Program-made: the position numbers and the translations under genes
From: Oceanispirochaeta sp.
GTDB lineage: Bacteria; Spirochaetota; Spirochaetia; DSM-2461
Assembly (NCBI GenBank): GCA_963666275.2
Contig: CAXXOA010000001.1
Span: 1,728,001-1,792,000 of the forward strand
Direction of reading: 5' to 3'
DNA length: 64,000 bases
Notes under the pieces: model-generated
Told to the model about the DNA's origin: nothing
Databases searched by the model: none
Seen by the model: only the letters and a program-made list of their open reading frames with translations
Shown here: positions 28,975 to 63,796 of the stretch, piece by piece
Numbering within the stretch: position 1 is the stretch's first letter
Layout: the number at the start of each line of letters is the position of its first letter

Positions 28975-29059
28975 GCCGGTGTGGTGGAATTGGTAGACAC
29001 CCGAGACTTAAAATCTCGTGGGCTTATAGCCCGTACCGGTTCAAGTCCGGTCACCGGCA
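28975..29059 (+). tRNA. tRNA-Leu(TAA)
   Basis: GCCGGTG acceptor, GGAATTGGTAGAC D arm, CGAGA-CTTAAAA-TCTCG anticodon arm, long variable arm, CCGG-TTCAAGT-CCGG T arm; TTGACC/TATAAT-like promoter upstream. Confidence 0.96.
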
Positions 29060-29060
29060 C
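29047..29060 (+). repeat. attL core (3' end of tRNA-Leu)
   Basis: CCGGTCACCGGCAC, repeated at 63783. Confidence 0.88.
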
Positions 29061-30303: not shown

Positions 30304-31857
30304 TTAGTCTGAGTATTCTAACCAGTCATAGATTCTAACTGTTGTTCTATAATGACTACAGAAGATTGGTGGATTTGCCTTTGATACTTCTTCTTTATAA
30401 TTAGAAAATTTTTCCTTTAACAATGATAATAATTTCTCATTGTCAATACTCGACTTTCCATTTTTTCTTATTGCCGCCTTTAAATAATTTGCATCAGATA
30501 TATTATAACTATAGCTTATTGGTTCATTTTTAATTAACATTGAGCGTACAGTAACATTAGGATTATTTATATCCTCATCAATTAATTTATAATATTTTTT
30601 TATTCTCCAGTCTAATTTATTATTTTGAATATCAGACAATTTATTCCCTAATTTTAAATATTTATACAACGGAGTTCGTCTCTGATATTTTAGAATCTGC
30701 GGAAATGCATAGGTTAGTAAATCATTAGGATCATATCCTCCAGTATTAAAAATAATATCTTCAATAATGTCATCTCGATTTAAACCAACCATTCCTTTTT
30801 CATGTAATGATTTCATTCCTACACCGATTACGAAGTCTACATCAACAATATCATCATTTTTCTCAATGTCTATTAAAGCAACTCTATCATGAGGGTCATT
30901 ATTTTTTACAATTTCATAAAGTTGTGTTTTAATTTGTTTAAGATGTTTAACACTTAATTTCCTTTTGTATAATTGCAATGTTTTATATATTATGCTGTAG
31001 TCTTTTACATAGATATGAGTAATAGGGAGATTGCTCCCATCAATATTTATATAAGACTTTTCAATAATGTCAGAAGATCCATCAAAAATTGGTTCTACGA
31101 GAAAAATGCTATTTTCCAGTTTTTTTAGGCCTTCATGAGATATGCATGTAGCTATTGATTTAAGAATCTCTTGAATATTAGAATCACTTATTGAATATCC
31201 TAGAAAAAAAATTGGATGTTCAATGAATATTGATAATAGTTTTGCTGCTAGATAAGCGTTCTTTTTTGTAAAAGAATCATAATCCTCATCTGTTAGAATG
31301 AGAGTATTAAAGTCATCTACAGATCCATGTATTTTGTATATTTCTCCAATTTCTTGGACTATTGAATTGATTAAATCATCTTGACTAAAATATACATCAT
31401 AATCCTGGAACAAACCCTCGATAAAATTATCCCAATTAGTGGTTATGATTCCATCAATGTTTGCTTTTTTTAATTCTTCAACTTCATTTTTTAATTCTTG
31501 ATCATCTATAATTGACTTCGTTTTAAGATATTTACATATTTCATATTTTAATGGAGATGACTCATGCTCCATTATTCCATATGCTTTATATTCATTCCTA
31601 CTATCCAAAAATTTATCATTCTTCCACCATATCTCTGAAAAGTCTTTTGCTAATAATTTAGCTGTTTTAGGAAGGTTAGAATTTGAAGTTGAATAATAAT
31701 AGTCAAAGTTTAAACCATTATCAGAACAAAACTTTTGTAAAAGTCCTTTCCAGTCTTCAAGGCCAATATATCTCCTTGAAAGACCTGATCCAATAAAAAG
31801 AAAAGGTGCTGACGTAAAGTTTTTAAGTTTTTTTTCTAATGTGTCTTTTATATCCAT
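30304..31857 (-). CDS. SIR2-like (SIR2_2) protein, putative NADase defence effector
   Basis: PFLFIGSGLS, IITTNWD, IYKIHGS, FFLGYSISD; visibly very AT-rich. Confidence 0.88.
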   Translation of the reverse strand: MDIKDTLEKKLKNFTSAPFLFIGSGLSRRYIGLEDWKGLLQKFCSDNGLNFDYYYSTSNSNLPKTAKLLAKDFSEIWWKNDKFLDSRNEYKAYGIMEHESSPLKYEICKYLKTKSIIDDQELKNEVEELKKANIDGIITTNWDNFIEGLFQDYDVYFSQDDLINSIVQEIGEIYKIHGSVDDFNTLILTDEDYDSFTKKNAYLAAKLLSIFIEHPIFFLGYSISDSNIQEILKSIATCISHEGLKKLENSIFLVEPIFDGSSDIIEKSYINIDGSNLPITHIYVKDYSIIYKTLQLYKRKLSVKHLKQIKTQLYEIVKNNDPHDRVALIDIEKNDDIVDVDFVIGVGMKSLHEKGMVGLNRDDIIEDIIFNTGGYDPNDLLTYAFPQILKYQRRTPLYKYLKLGNKLSDIQNNKLDWRIKKYYKLIDEDINNPNVTVRSMLIKNEPISYSYNISDANYLKAAIRKNGKSSIDNEKLLSLLKEKFSNYKEEVSKANPPIFCSHYRTTVRIYDWLEYSD

Positions 31858-31908
31858 TTTTATCTCTTTATAAAACTATGCAAAGATATAACTTGCTTAA
31901 AAATCAAC

Positions 31909-32241
31909 TCAACATTTTATTACGGCATAATTTATCAATTGTTTATTGAGTCTCCAAAACTCCTGCTCGCTCACAACCATGATCCCTTTCTGCAAAGCAA
32001 ACATAACAGCTTCAGAATAATCATCCGGATCCGCAGCTATTACCATTTCTGTATCTTCCTGGAATGAGTTATGAACTATAACCCTACCCAGTTCAAGTAC
32101 TCTCTTGATTTCTTCCCAGGAGAGGGGATCCCCGTGGATATCCTTAATCTCAAAGTTACCGTCCAGGCAGACTTTCAATCCTCTGTATTCCGATTTGTAT
32201 TCTGCTATATCCGGGCGGATAACAATTTCTTTTAGTTTCAT
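31909..32241 (-). CDS. stand-alone BRCT-like domain protein
   Basis: LKVCLDG...SWEEIKRVLELG...TEMVIAAD...ALQKGIMVVSEQEF resembles the BRCT pattern. Confidence 0.6.
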   Translation of the reverse strand: MKLKEIVIRPDIAEYKSEYRGLKVCLDGNFEIKDIHGDPLSWEEIKRVLELGRVIVHNSFQEDTEMVIAADPDDYSEAVMFALQKGIMVVSEQEFWRLNKQLINYAVIKC

Positions 32242-32249
32242 CGTTTTTC

Positions 32250-34073
32250 CTACTTTTTTAGAGCATTAACAGTTATATTCTCACTGAGAACACCCGGTTT
32301 AAATAGCCGGTAGGGAAATTCTTTTTTGTTGATGGATTTGTATTCCTCATGAATATTAAAAAGAGTCTCTGCTTCCACCAGGGTCAGATCGAAATCATAA
32401 AATGTTTCACTTTCCTGCTTCATGTCCTCAGTAAATGTACCGGATACCAGCAGACATTTTTCTACGGTAAATCCTTTATTTTCATAGTGTTTATAATAGG
32501 AGTTCATCTGCCGGGTAACAGTTGAAAACTTACTGTAACTTTCTTTGGAAGATTTACACTCCACAATAATGAGTTTGTTATCACCCAAGTCTAGAACAAT
32601 GTCGGCTTTTTCATTTTTGCTGTTTATGGCTGTCCGGAGTTCTTCATTGACGTTGAACCCTAGGCGTTCAAATATCATTTTTGTTGTTCCTTCGAATTCA
32701 AAGCCAACATTGATATTGTGAATACCCTGATTCTTTAATCCATCATAATCATTGTTGGCAATCAGGATATAATTTTCCAGATAGAGATTTTCCGACTTTC
32801 TGTAATTCCCTAAAACGGCATTTACTTTGTTCTTGCCTCTGTAGGAAATTTTATGATCAGTGCAGAAAGATATCAGAGTATTCTGGGGGAGTAGGTAGAG
32901 AATATCTCGGGGTCGGATATTGTAATCCAGCATATTTTCAGCATTGAGTTCAACTGTTTTTTGTATCTGAAATTCTTCCCGTATCATTTGTTCAATTTCT
33001 TTGGAATGAGCAGTTAAATCTCTGAGCAATTTGTCATAACCGTCCCGGGCTATACCTAGATTGGAATCAGTGTCCTGTTCCAGCAGATAGTCAATCAGAA
33101 AGTTTATTCTCTCTTCAATTGTTCTTCCGGTGTTCGGCAGGTGAATTTCCAATTTATTTTCGATAATGTCTTTCAGAAAATCTTTTCTATCCTGCAGCTT
33201 ATCGTTTTGGGAGAAAATCTCATCAGTAAGGATATCATAGATGCTTACTCCCTGTTTTATGATTGCTTCTATCTTGCTGTGTCTCTCTGTTTCCTTAATT
33301 CCATGGAGTTTTTTGACCATGTTGATATTTTTATCAGGGAGTGCTTTCAATATTCGTCTAGTAAATTTATCCGGCAGCTGAATCCCTTTGATGTCTCTCA
33401 GGATTGATATGAACTCATCGGGGATATAGATGGTGTTTTCATTCTTCTTGTAGAAAATTGTGCTTTCATCTTTTGCCAATGTGATGATGTCGTCAATATT
33501 CAGATTATCCAATTCTTTTTCACCGACAACAAGGTAATATAAAGCTCTGGATTCTTCGCTAGATAGTCCAAGTGATGATTTTAGTGTTTGAAGTATTGAA
33601 AGTTCATCAAGGGTTATTTTTTCCTGTGCTCCGTTTTTAAGGTCATTTGTGAAAGCTGTCGATGCACATGCTTTGAATATTTTATAATCCCTTATTCTGG
33701 ATGGATCAGCATCGAAAGGGTTTTCCCCTTTGTCAAACAGAGCTTTAAAATCTTTAATAGTGGATTTTAATTCCTTCACTTCTGCACGGAATAATTCATT
33801 GAACCAGTCCCGGCTCATAATGCAGTTCCCGTCTTTTATGATTATATCTGTAATGAGATCAAGTAGTAGGTTGTTGTTAAGTACGGTCATAAGGCGGTTG
33901 GCGTATAATTTATTAATAGCCGGGTGGGTGAATGCTTTTACAAAATGTTCTGCATCTGTTTTCTTTTCTAGTTCAATTTTTTCATCTATCTGGGAAATTA
34001 TATCGTTCAGGACTTTGTAAAATGGATTGATTTCGATTTGATTGCATTTATTGACTATTTTGAGAAGCTTCAT
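32250..34073 (-). CDS. large protein with C-terminal PD-(D/E)XK (Mrr-like) nuclease domain
   Basis: FEFE...FERLGF...KADIVL...IIVECKS; likely start MKLL at 34073 after GAGGT. Confidence 0.75.
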   Translation of the reverse strand: MKLLKIVNKCNQIEINPFYKVLNDIISQIDEKIELEKKTDAEHFVKAFTHPAINKLYANRLMTVLNNNLLLDLITDIIIKDGNCIMSRDWFNELFRAEVKELKSTIKDFKALFDKGENPFDADPSRIRDYKIFKACASTAFTNDLKNGAQEKITLDELSILQTLKSSLGLSSEESRALYYLVVGEKELDNLNIDDIITLAKDESTIFYKKNENTIYIPDEFISILRDIKGIQLPDKFTRRILKALPDKNINMVKKLHGIKETERHSKIEAIIKQGVSIYDILTDEIFSQNDKLQDRKDFLKDIIENKLEIHLPNTGRTIEERINFLIDYLLEQDTDSNLGIARDGYDKLLRDLTAHSKEIEQMIREEFQIQKTVELNAENMLDYNIRPRDILYLLPQNTLISFCTDHKISYRGKNKVNAVLGNYRKSENLYLENYILIANNDYDGLKNQGIHNINVGFEFEGTTKMIFERLGFNVNEELRTAINSKNEKADIVLDLGDNKLIIVECKSSKESYSKFSTVTRQMNSYYKHYENKGFTVEKCLLVSGTFTEDMKQESETFYDFDLTLVEAETLFNIHEEYKSINKKEFPYRLFKPGVLSENITVNALKK

Positions 34074-34288
34074 GTCATACCTCTGGAAATGGAAGGATGT
34101 ATTCAATGATATTCTTAACAATAAACATTATCAACAATAAAAAATAAAACATTTTTCCAGAATAATAATTTATTACCTAGATGGTAATAATAATATTTCT
34201 ATAAAAAACCCTTGATCTGTTTTTAAATTAATCTTAACGTATGTATAGTGCTGGTAGGGGCACTCGAAAGAGTGAAGGAGTAATCCTT

Positions 34289-35164: not shown

Positions 35165-35294
35165 ATGAAATTCTAAATTAAGTCAACTTAAACTACAACT
35201 GTTTAACAGACCTGTCAATTAGTACCGGATAACAATACTTACTGTATAACTCATATTAGTAAATAAATCAAAATTATTACTGGTTACGGAAAAG

Positions 35295-35651
35295 TTACTC
35301 CCCACCTTTCTTATTTCTTAAAGAAGTAACAACAGCCCCGGCCTCAATCAAATCCAGAAACCTGTCCAGATCCTGCAGCTCCTCCTCAGAAAGGTCATCA
35401 ATCCACTTGTGCATCATAGATTTTAACTCGGACATCCCTTCATATTTGTTTGCTTCAGCATCGGTTAAAAACTCAACACTAACACCAAGTTCTTTTGCTA
35501 TAGCTACTGATTCAGACGCTGATGGTTCAGTATCTCTTTTTATCCAGTTACTTACAGTGCTTCTTGGTCTATCCACAATTCTTGATATATCGGCTTGAGA
35601 TAAACCCTTTTTGTAGAGCAGTGGTAATGTCTTTTCCCAAAATGTACTCAT
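35295..35651 (-). CDS. XRE-family HTH repressor (cI-like)
   Basis: LSQADISRIVDRPRSTVSNW...IAKELGVSVEFL; divergent from the lytic operon. Confidence 0.88.
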   Translation of the reverse strand: MSTFWEKTLPLLYKKGLSQADISRIVDRPRSTVSNWIKRDTEPSASESVAIAKELGVSVEFLTDAEANKYEGMSELKSMMHKWIDDLSEEELQDLDRFLDLIEAGAVVTSLRNKKGGE

Positions 35652-35672
35652 GTTTATTTTCTCGACACATTG

Positions 35673-35759
35673 TACCATTTTTGGGATAAAAAGATAAAAT
35701 TATTATTGACATAAAACCAATAATGGTACATTAATAGTTTATGAATACCAAAATTGGGA
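35673..35759. promoter_or_regulatory. genetic switch: three 14-bp operators and rightward promoter
   Basis: TACCATTTTTGGGA (35673), AACCAATAATGGTA (35715), TACCAAAATTGGGA (35746); TTGACA at 35706. Confidence 0.7.
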
Positions 35760-35914
35760 CAAAGAATATAAAGATCAACGGAAATATTCACATCCGGATT
35801 AAGACAAGAGCTGCAATTGAAGACAGGAAGATACAAGAGGTTGTTGAAGAGGCAATATCTAATTACCTGATTTCAAAAGAGCATGATAAAAACCACAACA
35901 AAATGAGTAGTTAA
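35741..35914 (+). CDS. ribbon-helix-helix (Arc/CopG-like) protein in the Cro position
   Basis: 57 aa, not in the track: TKNIKINGNIHIRIKTRAAIEDRKIQEVVEEAISNYL. Confidence 0.72.
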   Translation: MNTKIGTKNIKINGNIHIRIKTRAAIEDRKIQEVVEEAISNYLISKEHDKNHNKMSS

Positions 35915-35927
35915 GAAATAAAGAAAT

Positions 35928-35943
35928 AGCGCAATATTGCGCT
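35928..35943. promoter_or_regulatory. 16-bp palindrome, candidate parS
   Basis: AGCGCAATATTGCGCT; near-identical copy at 38466 inside parB. Confidence 0.55.
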
Positions 35944-35959
35944 TTTTAAAGGAGCCGTT

Positions 35960-36289
35960 ATGAACATCCCCGACATTGAAGATTTCAAAAGATTGGAAAA
36001 GAAAGTCTCAGCCACTCAGTTCATGATGAAAGAACTCCTGGACCTGGTAGGAGATCCTGTCCTTAACCTTGATGATGTAGCTGCCAGAGAAGGAATTTCC
36101 CGCTCCATGCTTATGAGGGAACGGTGGCGGATACCCAATTTCGGACAGTCCGACTTTGCTACCGGAAGAAAACGCTGGAGATTGAGCTCCTACTGCAAAT
36201 GGCGTGAACGGGATGAACTGGCACGGAAAGAGGAGTGGGATCTGATGCGTATTCATGATCGGGAAAAGATTGTGATGGGGCAGTTTTAA
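35960..36289 (+). CDS. putative excisionase/AlpA-like winged-helix protein
   Basis: LNLDDVAAREGISRSML...RIPNFG...RKRWRLS; AAGGAG RBS. Confidence 0.6.
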   Translation: MNIPDIEDFKRLEKKVSATQFMMKELLDLVGDPVLNLDDVAAREGISRSMLMRERWRIPNFGQSDFATGRKRWRLSSYCKWRERDELARKEEWDLMRIHDREKIVMGQF

Positions 36290-36296
36290 ATTATTC

Positions 36297-36367
36297 GGTA
36301 CCGACCCACAGCAGGTTTCAGACATGCCTGCAGGCGTGGTCAGGCGGTTCAAGTCCATCCGGTGCCA
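36297..36367 (+). ncRNA. tRNA-like module 1
   Basis: Acceptor GGTACCG/CGGTGCC+A; T arm GGCGG-TTCAAGT-CCATC; one long hairpin in place of the D and anticodon arms. Confidence 0.6.
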
Positions 36368-36490
36368 GAAAAATCCAACCGTAACCGGTCATTGCGGCAA
36401 TGGTGATCCTGCTCCCGTAGCGAAGGGGGATTCGCTCAGGATTTTAGAAACCGGTACCCTTCACGGTGTTTCGGCCCGGAGGGTTTATTC

Positions 36491-36565
36491 AGGCTGGTTG
36501 TGTAGTGGCAATGCCCCAGGGATTGAGAGGCCCCCGGCCCCCGGGTTCGATTCCCGGTCAGCCTA
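36491..36565 (+). ncRNA. tRNA-like module 2
   Basis: Acceptor AGGCTGG/TCAGCCT+A; D arm GTGT-AGTGGCA-ATGC; perfect T arm CCGGG-TTCGATT-CCCGG; degenerate anticodon stem. Confidence 0.68.
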
Positions 36566-36623
36566 TTCTTCCTTGGAATGGAATAGTTTTTCGATGTCTT
36601 GGCCGAGACGGATCCGGCCACAA

Positions 36624-36690
36624 TGGCAGGTAATGCGGTAGGAGGGTTTTCTCCTTTTCCCTTCTGGGGGTTCGATTCCCTCCCTGTCAA
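36624..36690 (+). ncRNA. tRNA-like module 3
   Basis: Acceptor TGGCAGG/CCTGTCA+A; T arm GGGGG-TTCGATT-CCCTC; single central hairpin AGGAG/CTCCT. Confidence 0.62.
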
Positions 36691-36818
36691 ATAGATGAGC
36701 CTGACCAGCTCATTCATTGCGACACATGCCCTGCGGCCGCAGGTGAACAGGTTGAAGTTGTGTGACGGGTGCAGAGAGAGGCACATCTTATAAATCCATA
36801 AATCATGTGAGGTCAAAC

Positions 36819-37052
36819 ATGAAAAAGACTCAAAGCCTGACCTGCGGGTTCATGCTGGTAAGAAACGGGCAATTCGGCCCCTGTGGGAATAAAGCAACTA
36901 TGTACTTTAAAAAAGCCCCCCTTTGTGATGAATGCTCGGAATATGTGAAAGGCCGGGGAGAGAACATCTTTCCTATTACGGAAGAGTTCGAGAAAAAGGC
37001 TCATGCTTCGGAAGAACGGAAAGCCAAAAAGATGGAGGGAATACACGCATGA
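36819..37052 (+). CDS. small Cys-rich phage protein
   Basis: ATG after GAGG; C...C...CDEC; stop overlaps the parA start. Confidence 0.65.
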   Translation: MKKTQSLTCGFMLVRNGQFGPCGNKATMYFKKAPLCDECSEYVKGRGENIFPITEEFEKKAHASEERKAKKMEGIHA

Positions 37053-37813
37053 AAACTATTGCATTCAGTTCCATCAAAGGCGGTACGGGTAAATCATCCA
37101 ATGCCATTATGCAGGCCAACTATCTGGCCCAGGCTGGAAAGAAGGTTTTGTGTATCGATATGGATATTCAGAACTCCATGACATTCTACTATGTTGATGA
37201 TCCGGAAGCTGTAGAATACAACTCAATAGCAGAAGCTCTTCACCGGGGAGATCTGATGGATAATGTACTGGAGACTATCTATGCCAATATTCATCTTATT
37301 CCTTCTTCATTTAACCTGGTGAATCTGAGGACTATCAGTATCCTGACTCTCAAACGGCTGTTAAGCCAGGTATCCGAGAATTATGATTTTTGCATCATAG
37401 ATACAGCTCCTACGTGGGACAACATTACTTTGAATGCCCTGTTTGCGGCAGACAGGATAGTAACTCCCTGCTATCTGTCTCAATGGGATTGGAAAGGAGC
37501 CTTGTTTTTCCAGAATCAGATTATTCAGGATCTGGGTGAAGAACACCTGCAAAAATGGAATCTTTTAGTGAACTCCTGGAAACCTCCCAGAACGGATAAT
37601 CCAGATAATATTCTGAACCAGTTGGATACGCTGTTCTTGAATAGTTTTGATAACATCCTTGAAATCCGGATCCCCCATGAAAGCCTGATAAAAAAGTATA
37701 TCGACACTGGGGAGCGGATCTCCATGGCAAAGGATAAGAGCCGTCTATTCCTGGCGGCAGAAGCCCTCTCTCAGCTCTTAACAGGGGAGCGGTTGAATGT
37801 GGAGGCTTTCTGA
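37049..37813 (+). CDS. parA: ParA family ATPase
   Basis: KGGTGKS deviant Walker A, IDMDIQNS, IIDTAP; start MKTI at 37049. Confidence 0.92.
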   Translation: MKTIAFSSIKGGTGKSSNAIMQANYLAQAGKKVLCIDMDIQNSMTFYYVDDPEAVEYNSIAEALHRGDLMDNVLETIYANIHLIPSSFNLVNLRTISILTLKRLLSQVSENYDFCIIDTAPTWDNITLNALFAADRIVTPCYLSQWDWKGALFFQNQIIQDLGEEHLQKWNLLVNSWKPPRTDNPDNILNQLDTLFLNSFDNILEIRIPHESLIKKYIDTGERISMAKDKSRLFLAAEALSQLLTGERLNVEAF

Positions 37814-38658
37814 TGGCCAGGGGATTAACTGTAAAGGCGAATCCCGGCAAAGAGAAAATGACGGGAGGACTGTCTCTGAATCAGCTGAGTGAGCAGATCA
37901 GGGAGCTACGGGCAAAGGTTCCTGTAATTACTTCTCCAGAGAATATTCCTACCGGAGAGCCCTTTGTCAGTCTCTTTCCGATCCAGCAGAGAAACCTGGA
38001 ATCCATTATGGAATCCATCGGGCAGAACGGGTTTGATCCCCGGAAGGCTCTGATAGTCGGGATTTTTCCGGATGGTACCAGCTTTCTTGTGGATGGTCAT
38101 ACAAGACTGTCCGCAGTGAAGGCTCTGGGGCTGGAAGAAGTCCCTATGTGGCACCAGACATTTGATAGTGTGGATGATGCAGTGGATTGGGCACTTCATG
38201 AGCAGATCGATCGTCGGAATCTTTCTGAGTCCGAGCTGTATGACTATGTATTGAAAGTAGATCAGATGAAATCCAGAGGGAGGGGTGACAGTGCATATAA
38301 AGGAAAATCTTCAGAGAGAACTGCCGATATCGTCGGTACTTCTCCCCGGAAAGTGGAGCAGATCAGGACTGTTGAGAGGGATGCTTCTGAACAGCAGAAA
38401 GAGGCGATCAGGTCAGGTGACAAATCTGTTAATCAGACCTACCGGGAAATAAAGGGTAAAGATAAAGCGCAACATTGCGCTAATTCCAGAGAACCAGAAA
38501 GGAACTGGGTGGTCAAAACCTATATTGGGAAGGTTTCTCTTATCAGAAATGGTGAAGAGGTTGTGCTGGTGAATTATACCACCATGGAGACATTGTATGG
38601 TGCCCCAGCTGAGAAGTTGCGGAAGGTGGTGGAACAGTATCTGGAGAAGATTTTGTGA
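37813..38658 (+). CDS. parB: ParB family protein
   Basis: LVDGHTRL, EQIDRRNL, downstream HTH; translationally coupled to parA. Confidence 0.88.
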   Translation: MARGLTVKANPGKEKMTGGLSLNQLSEQIRELRAKVPVITSPENIPTGEPFVSLFPIQQRNLESIMESIGQNGFDPRKALIVGIFPDGTSFLVDGHTRLSAVKALGLEEVPMWHQTFDSVDDAVDWALHEQIDRRNLSESELYDYVLKVDQMKSRGRGDSAYKGKSSERTADIVGTSPRKVEQIRTVERDASEQQKEAIRSGDKSVNQTYREIKGKDKAQHCANSREPERNWVVKTYIGKVSLIRNGEEVVLVNYTTMETLYGAPAEKLRKVVEQYLEKIL

Positions 38659-41395: not shown

Positions 41396-41589
41396 CTGAA
41401 ACGGGAGGGGAAATGGACTATTTGACACCTGAAATTGAAGCGCATATCGAAGAGTTGAAAGAACGATTGAGGAAAACACCTTATGGAGATGTGGGATTGG
41501 TATTCACCATGTCAGGCGGTCAGGTGACGCTGATTAAACCAATCAATCTACCAGTAATTCGACCGGGTAAAAATCATGGAAAATCTTGA
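41392..41589 (+). CDS. small phage protein (DUF2292-like)
   Basis: PYGDVGLVFTMSGGQVTLI. Confidence 0.55.
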   Translation: MTETGGEMDYLTPEIEAHIEELKERLRKTPYGDVGLVFTMSGGQVTLIKPINLPVIRPGKNHGKS

Positions 41590-42472
41590 CAAAAATCTAG
41601 TTTCACGGGGAAAACAGCGTGTATTCAGAAATGAACGATATCGCCATATCTGTCAAAGATTTATTACCTGGTGTGCTGAACAGGAGATCCCGGAATCTAT
41701 AGGGAATGAAATTTTGTGGTTGGAATCCCTTCATGATCAGGGATTGAATGCATCGACAATACGACTTTACGGATATGCTGTTAAGGCCTATTTACTGGAC
41801 AATGTTGATACTGAAAGCATGACCATGGATGAGAAACTGTTCCATCAGTTCAAGATTGAGTATGAGTTCCGGACATTCAAGATGCCCAGAGTTTCAAATC
41901 GCAAGGCCGAAGAGTATCTAATCAATCATGAGGAGCTTCATGAAGTTCTAAATCACTCGAAGCTCAAGACCAGGATGATCATAGAATTTCTTGCCAGCAC
42001 CGGCTGCAGAGTCTCGGAAATGACCGGTATTCGGTTGAGGCATATACGGAAAGTGAGAGATTCGGAATATCGAATCCGAGTGATGGGCAAAGGCCGTAAA
42101 GAGCGGGTGATACGTATTAACGGCGGTTTAAGAAAGAGAATATCCAAAGCCTTCCCGGAAACTGAAACCTATCTATTCGAATCTGCTCCTGGTAGGAGTT
42201 ATTCCCGCCAGGGGATTCACGACCTGGTAAAGAGAGCAGGTGAAAGAGCGAAAATCTTCGGATTGCATCCCCATTCATTCAGGCATTTTTATGCCACTTT
42301 CCTGATTGATAAGACCGGGAATATAGATGCTGTATCCCGATATCTTGGGCATTCCGATGTGTCCACAACGCTCGGAATGTATTACCACAGTAAGGATCTT
42401 TCCCTGGAGGAATTGAATCTGAATCTTTACGGTGATCGTGGAAGAAATAAAGGAGTTGCTGCACATGCCTAG
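41576..42472 (+). CDS. XerC/D-like tyrosine recombinase
   Basis: TGCRVSE, GKGRKER, HPHSFRH, LGHSDVSTTLGMY; no arm-binding domain. Confidence 0.92.
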   Translation: MENLDKNLVSRGKQRVFRNERYRHICQRFITWCAEQEIPESIGNEILWLESLHDQGLNASTIRLYGYAVKAYLLDNVDTESMTMDEKLFHQFKIEYEFRTFKMPRVSNRKAEEYLINHEELHEVLNHSKLKTRMIIEFLASTGCRVSEMTGIRLRHIRKVRDSEYRIRVMGKGRKERVIRINGGLRKRISKAFPETETYLFESAPGRSYSRQGIHDLVKRAGERAKIFGLHPHSFRHFYATFLIDKTGNIDAVSRYLGHSDVSTTLGMYYHSKDLSLEELNLNLYGDRGRNKGVAAHA

Positions 42473-42848: not shown

Positions 42849-42927
42849 GGATTTGCAGAACCCTCCACGTCCACAGGAAAAATACCGTGATGTCAGTTGA
42901 GGGGAACCCAAAGGAGGGAAAACGGGA

Positions 42928-63782: not shown

Positions 63783-63796
63783 CCGGTCACCGGCAC
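63783..63796 (+). repeat. attR core
   Basis: CCGGTCACCGGCAC identical to 29047-29060. Confidence 0.88.

Follow-up and report, generated by a model that had tools for sequence, protein, structure and literature searches.

The window, by which we mean the whole 64,000-nt stretch of Oceanispirochaeta DNA analysed here, contains a prophage of ~34.7 kb inserted at tRNA-Leu(TAA). The att core is found at 29047 and again at 63783, so we place the prophage at approximately 29047-63796. The gene order is integrase, a defence-like island, a CI-like repressor (minus strand), a ribbon-helix-helix (RHH) protein, a xis-like protein, a non-coding stretch, and a small cysteine-rich (Cys-rich) protein, followed by parA, a parB-like gene, and then replication and packaging genes (Table 1). 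A 34,978-nt contig, possibly from the source sample, spans the region without any difference, which rules out an assembly artefact as its origin. A consensus scan of 35200-37200 found no sigma-70-type promoter. The defence-like island (30304-34121, minus strand), located between the integrase and the repressor, encodes a SIR2-domain protein that matches PADLOC PDC-S25 (E 9e-154). It further encodes a BRCT-like protein of small size and one of 623 aa that belongs to no Pfam or PADLOC family. A palindrome, AGCGCAAYRTTGCGCT, is present at 35928-35943 before xis and at ~38457-38486 within the parB-like gene, and it precedes xis in the two closest prophages (L002 and L003) as well; it looks like a parS-like or operator-like site. 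A second tyrosine recombinase gene (41576-42472) is flanked by the replication genes on one side and the HNH/terminase module on the other, and one is found at the same position in L033, L034, L035, L037, and L038.

Table 1. Features of the prophage early operon and related sites, in window coordinates.
Feature	Position	Strand	Remarks
attL core	29047..29060	+	3' end of tRNA-Leu(TAA)
CI-like HTH repressor gene	35295..35678	-	divergent from early operon
RHH (Arc/Cro-like) gene	35741..35914	+	opens rightward early operon
xis-like gene	35960..36289	+	weak phrog_66 match, E 6e-4
Unit 1	36297..36367	+	acceptor, single long hairpin, T arm (one mismatch)
Spacer, originally described as foldable	36368..36490	+	absent from two closest prophages
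Unit 2	36491..36565	+	acceptor, D arm, lengthened anticodon arm, T arm; kept in L002 and L003
Unit 3	36624..36690	+	acceptor, 9-nt GG linker, 7-bp hairpin (36640-36665), T arm
CTCCTTT in unit 3 loop	36651..36657	+	identical to host 16S rRNA 3' tail (anti-Shine-Dalgarno)
Structured leader of Cys-rich gene	36696..36821	+	conserved; begins 5 nt past unit 3
Leader hairpin, invariant loop CTGACCA	36701-36707		
Leader stem	36722-36726/36759-36763		
Leader, candidate pseudoknot partner	36750-36754		
Leader, other parts			GAGAG-loop hairpin; hairpin across RBS and start codon
Small Cys-rich gene	36819..37052	+	no Pfam or PHROG family; kept in both homologues (L002, L003)
parA	37049-37813		directly after Cys-rich gene
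Small terminase gene RBS	42910..42922	+	best predicted unit 3 partner, candidate target

The original prediction, made from the sequence of the window, described three units in the non-coding stretch that combine the acceptor stem and T arm of a tRNA. A descriptor search recovered all three at the same coordinates, and in each the acceptor stem has 7 bp, the discriminator is A, and a G-TTCRANT-C loop is spaced as in a tRNA. The 5-bp T stems also described are present in units 2 and 3, whereas that of unit 1 has a C-A mismatch and keeps 4/5 pairs. The descriptor found three modules in 36290-36790, compared with none in 4997/5000 dinucleotide shuffles and one in the other 3/5000. On both strands of the 5.27-Mb genome it gave 61 matches, namely 55 host tRNAs, the three units, and three strays; no further convincing modules were found elsewhere in this operon. 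BLAST against named phages returned a single 32-nt chance match.

Other parts of the description fared unevenly. None of the units encodes CCA, as had been pointed out, but this is uninformative because it is the norm in this host, where 1/58 ARAGORN calls in the genome encodes CCA. Folding of the region as a whole was no better than that of shuffles (501 nt, z +0.49), and the single units were only weakly stable (z -0.6 to -1.6). The spacers had been reported to fold, but the spacer at 36368-36490 had a z-score of -0.05 and conservation was lacking in the one from unit 2 to unit 3 (27-47% identity). The TTATTC that precedes units 1 and 2 is lost in both L002 and L003. An Rfam search returned nine matches up to E 10, none of which reached its family cut-off. 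The expectation that ARAGORN would report a pseudogene or nothing did not hold for unit 2, which was called as tRNA-Leu(GAG).

L002 and L003 are same-genus prophages that have the integrase and the att gene in common with the prophage in the window, and xis is 58-60% identical. Units 2 and 3 occupy the same slot in both, and unit 1 and its spacer are absent there. In unit 2, 16/16 acceptor, D, and T pairs were kept in 3/3 sequences with three double changes, a pair score equalled in 18/500 shuffles, and in unit 3, 12/12 pairs were kept in 3/3 sequences with four double changes, with 13/500 shuffles scoring as high, although three related sequences provide a weak statistic. Structure-preserving covariation, which the original prediction had named as a check, is therefore present as double changes in units 2 and 3. 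Identity at the four-fold sites of the xis-like gene was 5/22, 8/25, and 10/26, which is the level of chance, and unit 2 was 71-78% identical. These data bear on the possibility that the units are decayed tRNA pseudogenes acquired by the phage, which would agree with the real tRNAs found in the slot of some relatives, with the weak folding z-scores, and with unit 1 being unique and mismatched in its T stem. Because the pairs of units 2 and 3 are kept with compensatory double changes, without a single broken pair, while the silent sites of xis are saturated, we conclude that these two units are not decaying tRNAs and that, judged by the three sequences, their fold is under purifying selection. 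We consider decay very improbable as an account of the cassette; for units 2 and 3 it is largely refuted, and unit 1 may still be a decayed copy. The original interpretation is thus supported in part, namely as a cassette of selected, tRNA-shaped, non-canonical RNAs bearing an RNase P recognition unit, by the covariation in units 2 and 3 and by the presence of RNase P RNA in the host.

Unit 2 scored 26.3 bits against the Rfam tRNA model (RF00005, cut-off 29), and units 1 and 3 were not among the matches of that model. The units have what a canonical tRNA requires of its upper half, namely an acceptor of 7 bp, a T stem of 5 bp (in unit 1 with the one mismatch), a TTCRANY loop, and a discriminator, and unit 2 lacks a 5-bp anticodon stem with a 7-nt loop and a conserved anticodon. 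Its middle had been described as non-canonical, with a D arm and a broken anticodon stem. The D arm and the non-canonical build were borne out, but the anticodon stem is better drawn as 6-7 bp long and closing a loop of 10-11 nt. This loop, which carries the 10-nt ATTGAGAGGC at 36522-36531, is nearly invariant, reading ATTGAGAGGC in two orthologues and TTTTAGAGGCA in the third. The D and T stems are separated by 26, 29, and 27 nt in the three orthologues, compared with 22-23 nt in class I tRNAs. The minimum-energy fold of unit 2 in the window was not a cloverleaf (-30.1 versus -22.8 for the constrained fold). A model of unit 2 matched only canonical tRNAs elsewhere in 150 genomes, the 11 best other matches (at most 51.6 bits) being tRNA-Lys, and a search with an AGAGGC pattern gave no unit 2 homologue in 80 of at least 119 matches.

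ARAGORN assigned the three unit 2 orthologues to Leu, Lys, and Ile. When the loop was read by hand, its central triplet was GAG, GAG, and TAG, and A73 was present in 3/3 sequences. Because all of these triplets are leucine anticodons, we kept open the reading that unit 2 mimics tRNA-Leu (loop U-U-NAG-A-G) and that the set acts as decoys that absorb anticodon nucleases or tRNA sensors, or that unit 2 is an atypical adaptor with frame-shifted decoding. This reading agrees with L327, L332, and L336, which are phage tRNA-Leu(GAG) genes whose variable loop is short and whose anticodon loop is similar, and with a canonical tRNA-Ser and a tRNA-Met-like gene that occupy the slot in other loci. We nevertheless regard it as unlikely, given the D-to-T distance of unit 2, its lack of a long variable arm, the three different ARAGORN anticodons, the absence of an anticodon arm from units 1 and 3, and the full Leu tRNA set of the host.

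The structured leader of the Cys-rich gene kept 24/24 pairs in the three prophages with five double changes, and 1/500 shuffles scored as high; the structure was drawn from the same three sequences, so the pair count leans towards it. The five-pair helix of the CTGACCA loop with 36750-36754 varies by wobble only, and the leader is probably pseudoknotted. The same loop could alternatively pair with an invariant GGTCA that overlaps the RBS of the Cys-rich gene. Because CTGACCA can pair either internally or with this GGTCA, the alternative pairing suggests that the leader may act as a translational switch. The leader had no Rfam match, and a model of it found only its three training loci in 38 genomes; two matches to a leader pattern were rejected as chance, both within coding DNA. 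We consider the leader a candidate for a new cis-regulatory RNA.

The original prediction had raised antisense immunity as a function. P4 CI RNA is a phage RNA that is cut by host RNase P from an early transcript and has a loop that blocks an RBS. The C4 antisense RNA of P1/P7 is of the same kind (PMC5320573, PMC11143913), and we propose both properties for the cassette; as far as C4 is described in these sources, the cassette differs in having a true acceptor and T-loop domain and several unlike modules, and no a'/b' target pair was found in it. RNAs of this type with specific targets in their own leader would suit an early-operon position beside a repressor and a conserved structured leader downstream, and unit 1 contains, at 36337-36345, TGGTCAGGC, which is complementary over 9 nt to the invariant loop of the leader. 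However, unit 1 has no counterpart in the two closest prophages and its 9-nt stretch is paired in the fold, units 2 and 3 hold no conserved complement, the Rfam C4 models gave no match up to E 10, and the prophage already has a CI-like repressor. The antisense pairing originally suggested for GTGGCAATG in unit 2 with 36715 is lost in both homologues. When the cassette was compared with its flanks, no perfect complement of at least 7 nt was common to the three prophages in a way that joins homologous units to homologous targets, and the loops showed no complementarity to conserved targets in their own transcript. A C4/CI-type circuit is therefore without sequence support, and we judge it very unlikely.

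A same-strand T-arm element was found within ~600 nt downstream of the xis-like gene in 11/23 distinct loci (the window, L002, L003, L004, L007, L008, L012, L013, L016, L040, and L055) and was absent from the other 12, where the 23 exclude L017 (contig end), L019 and L020 (a 37-residue match), four repeats, and four weak profile matches, and where L008 passed a first scan and failed a stricter one and the short acceptor of L040 was judged by eye. L007 has a canonical tRNA-Ser only. The remaining positives are non-canonical and range from 40-nt mini elements to more than 100 nt, and the contents of the slot differ between phages. Minimal acceptor plus T-arm elements of 40-44 nt were seen in L016 (1737-1776), L039 (3394-3437), and L040, and two of these overlap the xis stop codon. 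The slots of L004 (minus strand) and L012 hold an array of a 71-nt module and a module with ~100 nt of cargo, to which L004 only adds a tRNA-Met-like gene. Apart from one MAG that bears the label Bacteroidaceae, the named records that have the xis-like gene were from Spirochaetia. Scans of viral sequences that used the xis-like protein, an alignment of it, or the leader 17-mer found nothing, and a metagenome scan gave four loci, of which one ends 23 nt past the gene, two are only 37-residue matches, and one has no module.

Unit 3 has the topology of the tRNA-like domain (TLD) of tmRNA, and its scaffold is kept in L002 and L003. As in the tmRNA TLD and the TLD-only RNA of mycobacteriophage DS6A, in so far as the latter is described in PMC4131195, the acceptor is followed by a stemless GG linker, one helix, and a T arm, without an anticodon. 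Unit 3 differs in its pyrimidine loop and in lacking a tag frame, and the alanine identity of G3-U70 with A73 is not conserved. Titration of SmpB or other tRNA-binding proteins was suggested for the DS6A RNA (PMC4131195), and units that mimic a TLD could likewise weaken trans-translation. In addition to the topology and the G3-U70 pair of unit 3, weak matches to the tmRNA model in L237 (29.7 bits) and L055 (15.6 bits; cut-off 47) are in line with such mimicry, but G3-U70 is replaced by G-C in both orthologues and the window itself scored just 11.4 bits. We consider this explanation highly improbable.

The 12-nt loop of unit 3 contains CTCCTTT, which is identical to the host 16S tail GATCACCTCCTTT, and 6/220 permutations of the loop matched the tail equally far. 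A rival terminator-like hairpin that hides this word is 2.8 kcal/mol higher, and the word had an unpaired probability of 0.56-0.85. The word itself is not conserved among orthologues: L002 and L003 have (A/T)CCAGCTAT at the aligned position and CCCTCCC at the edge between loop and stem. It could derive from complementarity to the adjacent AGGAG. Among the three units, only unit 3 combines an acceptor, a GG linker, a hairpin with a YCUCCUUU loop, and a T arm. L055, which has a distant xis-like gene, contains a 69-nt module of the unit 3 build with the same TCTCCTTT.

The same combination was found in other phages. A pattern of the loop word and the T loop had 95 viral matches, and among the 80 fetched, the unit 3 build was present in 10 with an acceptor found by script and in five more by eye; three of the 80 also carry a D arm. 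Because this query contained the loop word, we used a control pattern in which only YYYYY-TTT was fixed. In 80 of at least 114 matches, YCTCC occurred in 7/22 module clusters versus 2/38 other clusters (Fisher p 0.009), with TTT fixed in both viral patterns and G+C content uncontrolled, and in 6/16 of the modules without an ARAGORN call. The two other clusters with YCTCC look like modules overlooked by the acceptor rule. A model built from four phage RNAs unrelated to the window, a training set drawn from the pattern seeded by the window's own loop, placed L055 and unit 3 at the top of 13 matches in 247 kb, with 30.7 and 26.9 bits. A unit-3-class model gave no match in 150 genomes at E 0.001, and at this threshold it missed the window's own copy too, so the negative result carries no information. 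Rfam offered no family for the elements in the 20 loci scanned, where L187 and L244 exceeded the tRNA cut-off and two weak tmRNA matches appeared. Taken together, these comparisons indicate that unit 3 fits into a broader class of undescribed phage RNAs, tRNA scaffolds with an anti-Shine-Dalgarno loop.

A family of 21 phage loci (L103, L105, L125, L144, L168, L186, L191, L197, L206, L231, and kin) carries an anti-Shine-Dalgarno-loop tRNA scaffold ~90-105 nt behind a gene for an SSB-like protein. In 12/21 of these loci the loop fits the RBS of its own upstream gene better than those of others (p 0.0014), and variants of loop and RBS partly track one another. Kinship among the loci and discordance in several of them make this a hint only.

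The arrangement could also serve as punctuation, with the modules acting in cis as cleavage marks for RNase P and 3' nucleases and the released pieces being nearly idle. The cuts would separate xis from the Cys-rich and parAB genes and set the 5' end of the leader, and the leader does begin 5 nt past unit 3. A conserved slot between two genes, the smallest forms of 40-44 nt without cargo (L016, L039, and L040), and a unit 3 whose stems are kept while its loop differs among orthologues all speak for punctuation. However, one module would be enough and two or three are present, the loop of unit 2 is nearly invariant, the loop word is enriched across phages, and the operon has no other convincing modules. 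We therefore give punctuation as the sole function a small chance.

We conclude from these comparisons that the cassette is real and selected, that it combines tRNA-shaped RNAs of non-canonical build with a structured leader that is conserved, and that it sits in a variable slot of spirochaete-type temperate phages. Two of its elements, both identified by sequence, go beyond the original prediction: the loop of unit 3 with its anti-Shine-Dalgarno word, and the leader that follows. With two units conserved in related prophages and one unit displaying a copy of the 16S tail with which the ribosome docks on mRNA, the cassette probably encodes phage regulatory RNAs. A transcript running early through the xis-like gene would carry the tRNA-shaped modules, and host enzymes (RNase P at the 5' end, 3' trimming, and CCA addition) would release them as stable RNAs of ~70 nt. 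Both RNase P RNA and two genes of the CCA/poly(A)-polymerase family are present in the host. For RNase P, an acceptor with a T arm is enough of a substrate, C4 RNA is matured by RNase P (PMC11143913), and the b' loop of C4 blocks RBSs (PMC5320573). The acceptor and T-arm half would then be a scaffold for processing and stability only, and the replacement of the anticodon arm a swappable cargo loop. By copying the 16S 3' tail, the loop of unit 3 would pair with strong Shine-Dalgarno sites and dampen translation initiation, as the anti-Shine-Dalgarno loops of NfeR1 repress translation (PMC10746234), most plausibly at the packaging genes of the phage in early induction, or else across many genes. 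That the modules are released by host tRNA processing and mask ribosome-binding sites with their loops is a possibility to which we assign somewhat less than an even chance, and we infer each of its steps, transcription, processing, pairing, and effect. The masking mechanism covers at most unit 3, because units 1 and 2 have no anti-Shine-Dalgarno loop.

Predicted targets of unit 3 varied among the prophages. In the window, the loop and 3' strand of unit 3 paired best with the small-terminase (terS) RBS, which ranked 1 of 37 genes (-20.4 kcal/mol; 11 bp for the loop alone). In L003, the adjacent HNH gene ranked 1 and terS 6 of 23 genes, and in L002 neither an HNH gene nor terS was found among 11 genes. 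No target was shared across the three prophages, the cross-tables had no steady cognate preference, and no cognate preference was seen between unit 3 and its own xis RBS. RBS masking is thus plausible for the class and no more than a candidate mechanism in this prophage.

Several described RNAs resemble parts of the cassette. The 'cuckoo' sRNAs NfeR1 and alpha-r14, as outlined in PMC10746234, carry an anti-Shine-Dalgarno word in a hairpin loop with varying stems; they are chromosomal, consist of several hairpins that each have CCUCCUCCC, and lack a tRNA scaffold, whereas unit 3 has a single CUCCUUU loop and no Rfam match. RNAC and RNAD of T4 have tRNA-like ends. They are stable phage RNAs of unknown function tied to tRNA-type processing, and, by the account available in PMC9697503, they are late and longer than the cassette RNAs and belong to a lytic phage. 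The topology of YrlA, a bacterial Y RNA, differs from that of the units as far as it is described in PMC4201824, and no Ro60/TROVE gene (PF05731) was found in the host genome, which is 97% complete. The mascRNA model gave 17-19 bits, compared with a cut-off of 42.5. By the comparisons above we rejected membership in the tRNA, C4, tmRNA, YrlA, and cuckoo families. RNA-based prophage origins next to parABS showed no link to the cassette in the part of PMC7157519 that was available, and the list of 10,006 candidate viral RNAs in PMC10690425 may include these families. In the literature searched, mostly outside subscription papers, neither a cassette of this kind nor a tRNA-scaffolded anti-Shine-Dalgarno RNA from a phage was described, and within it the combination of tRNA scaffold and anti-Shine-Dalgarno loop in phages fits an undescribed class.

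A broader and more doubtful reading is that temperate phages have made the upper part of tRNA into an all-purpose plug-in chassis, with an early-operon hot spot that collects interchangeable tRNA-scaffolded RNAs and one widespread cargo that mimics the 16S tail. Every such RNA would be matured by the host for free, each with a different cargo loop, and the 16S-tail mimic would compete for Shine-Dalgarno sites and so time phage expression or throttle host translation. If this were true, engineered tRNA scaffolds would have a natural equivalent in the chassis, and a layer of phage translational control would have gone unrecognised under wrong tRNA calls. Because tools miss these RNAs or give them arbitrary anticodons (Leu, Lys, and Ile for unit 2), phage tRNA counts are distorted and an RNA class is hidden. 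The cassette also bears on the role of odd tRNA-like stable RNAs in phages. Should the prediction for the loop of unit 3 hold, phages would possess RNAs of 70 nt that are matured by the host and block ribosome-binding sites. Because each unit is short and complete in itself, processing and repression are accessible in E. coli and in vitro. As a separate observation, tRNA-like genes of 111-113 nt were seen in phages (L283, L295, L316, L333, L338, L339, and L359); ARAGORN gives no call for them, and they have normal D and T arms with a hairpin inserted at the anticodon region.
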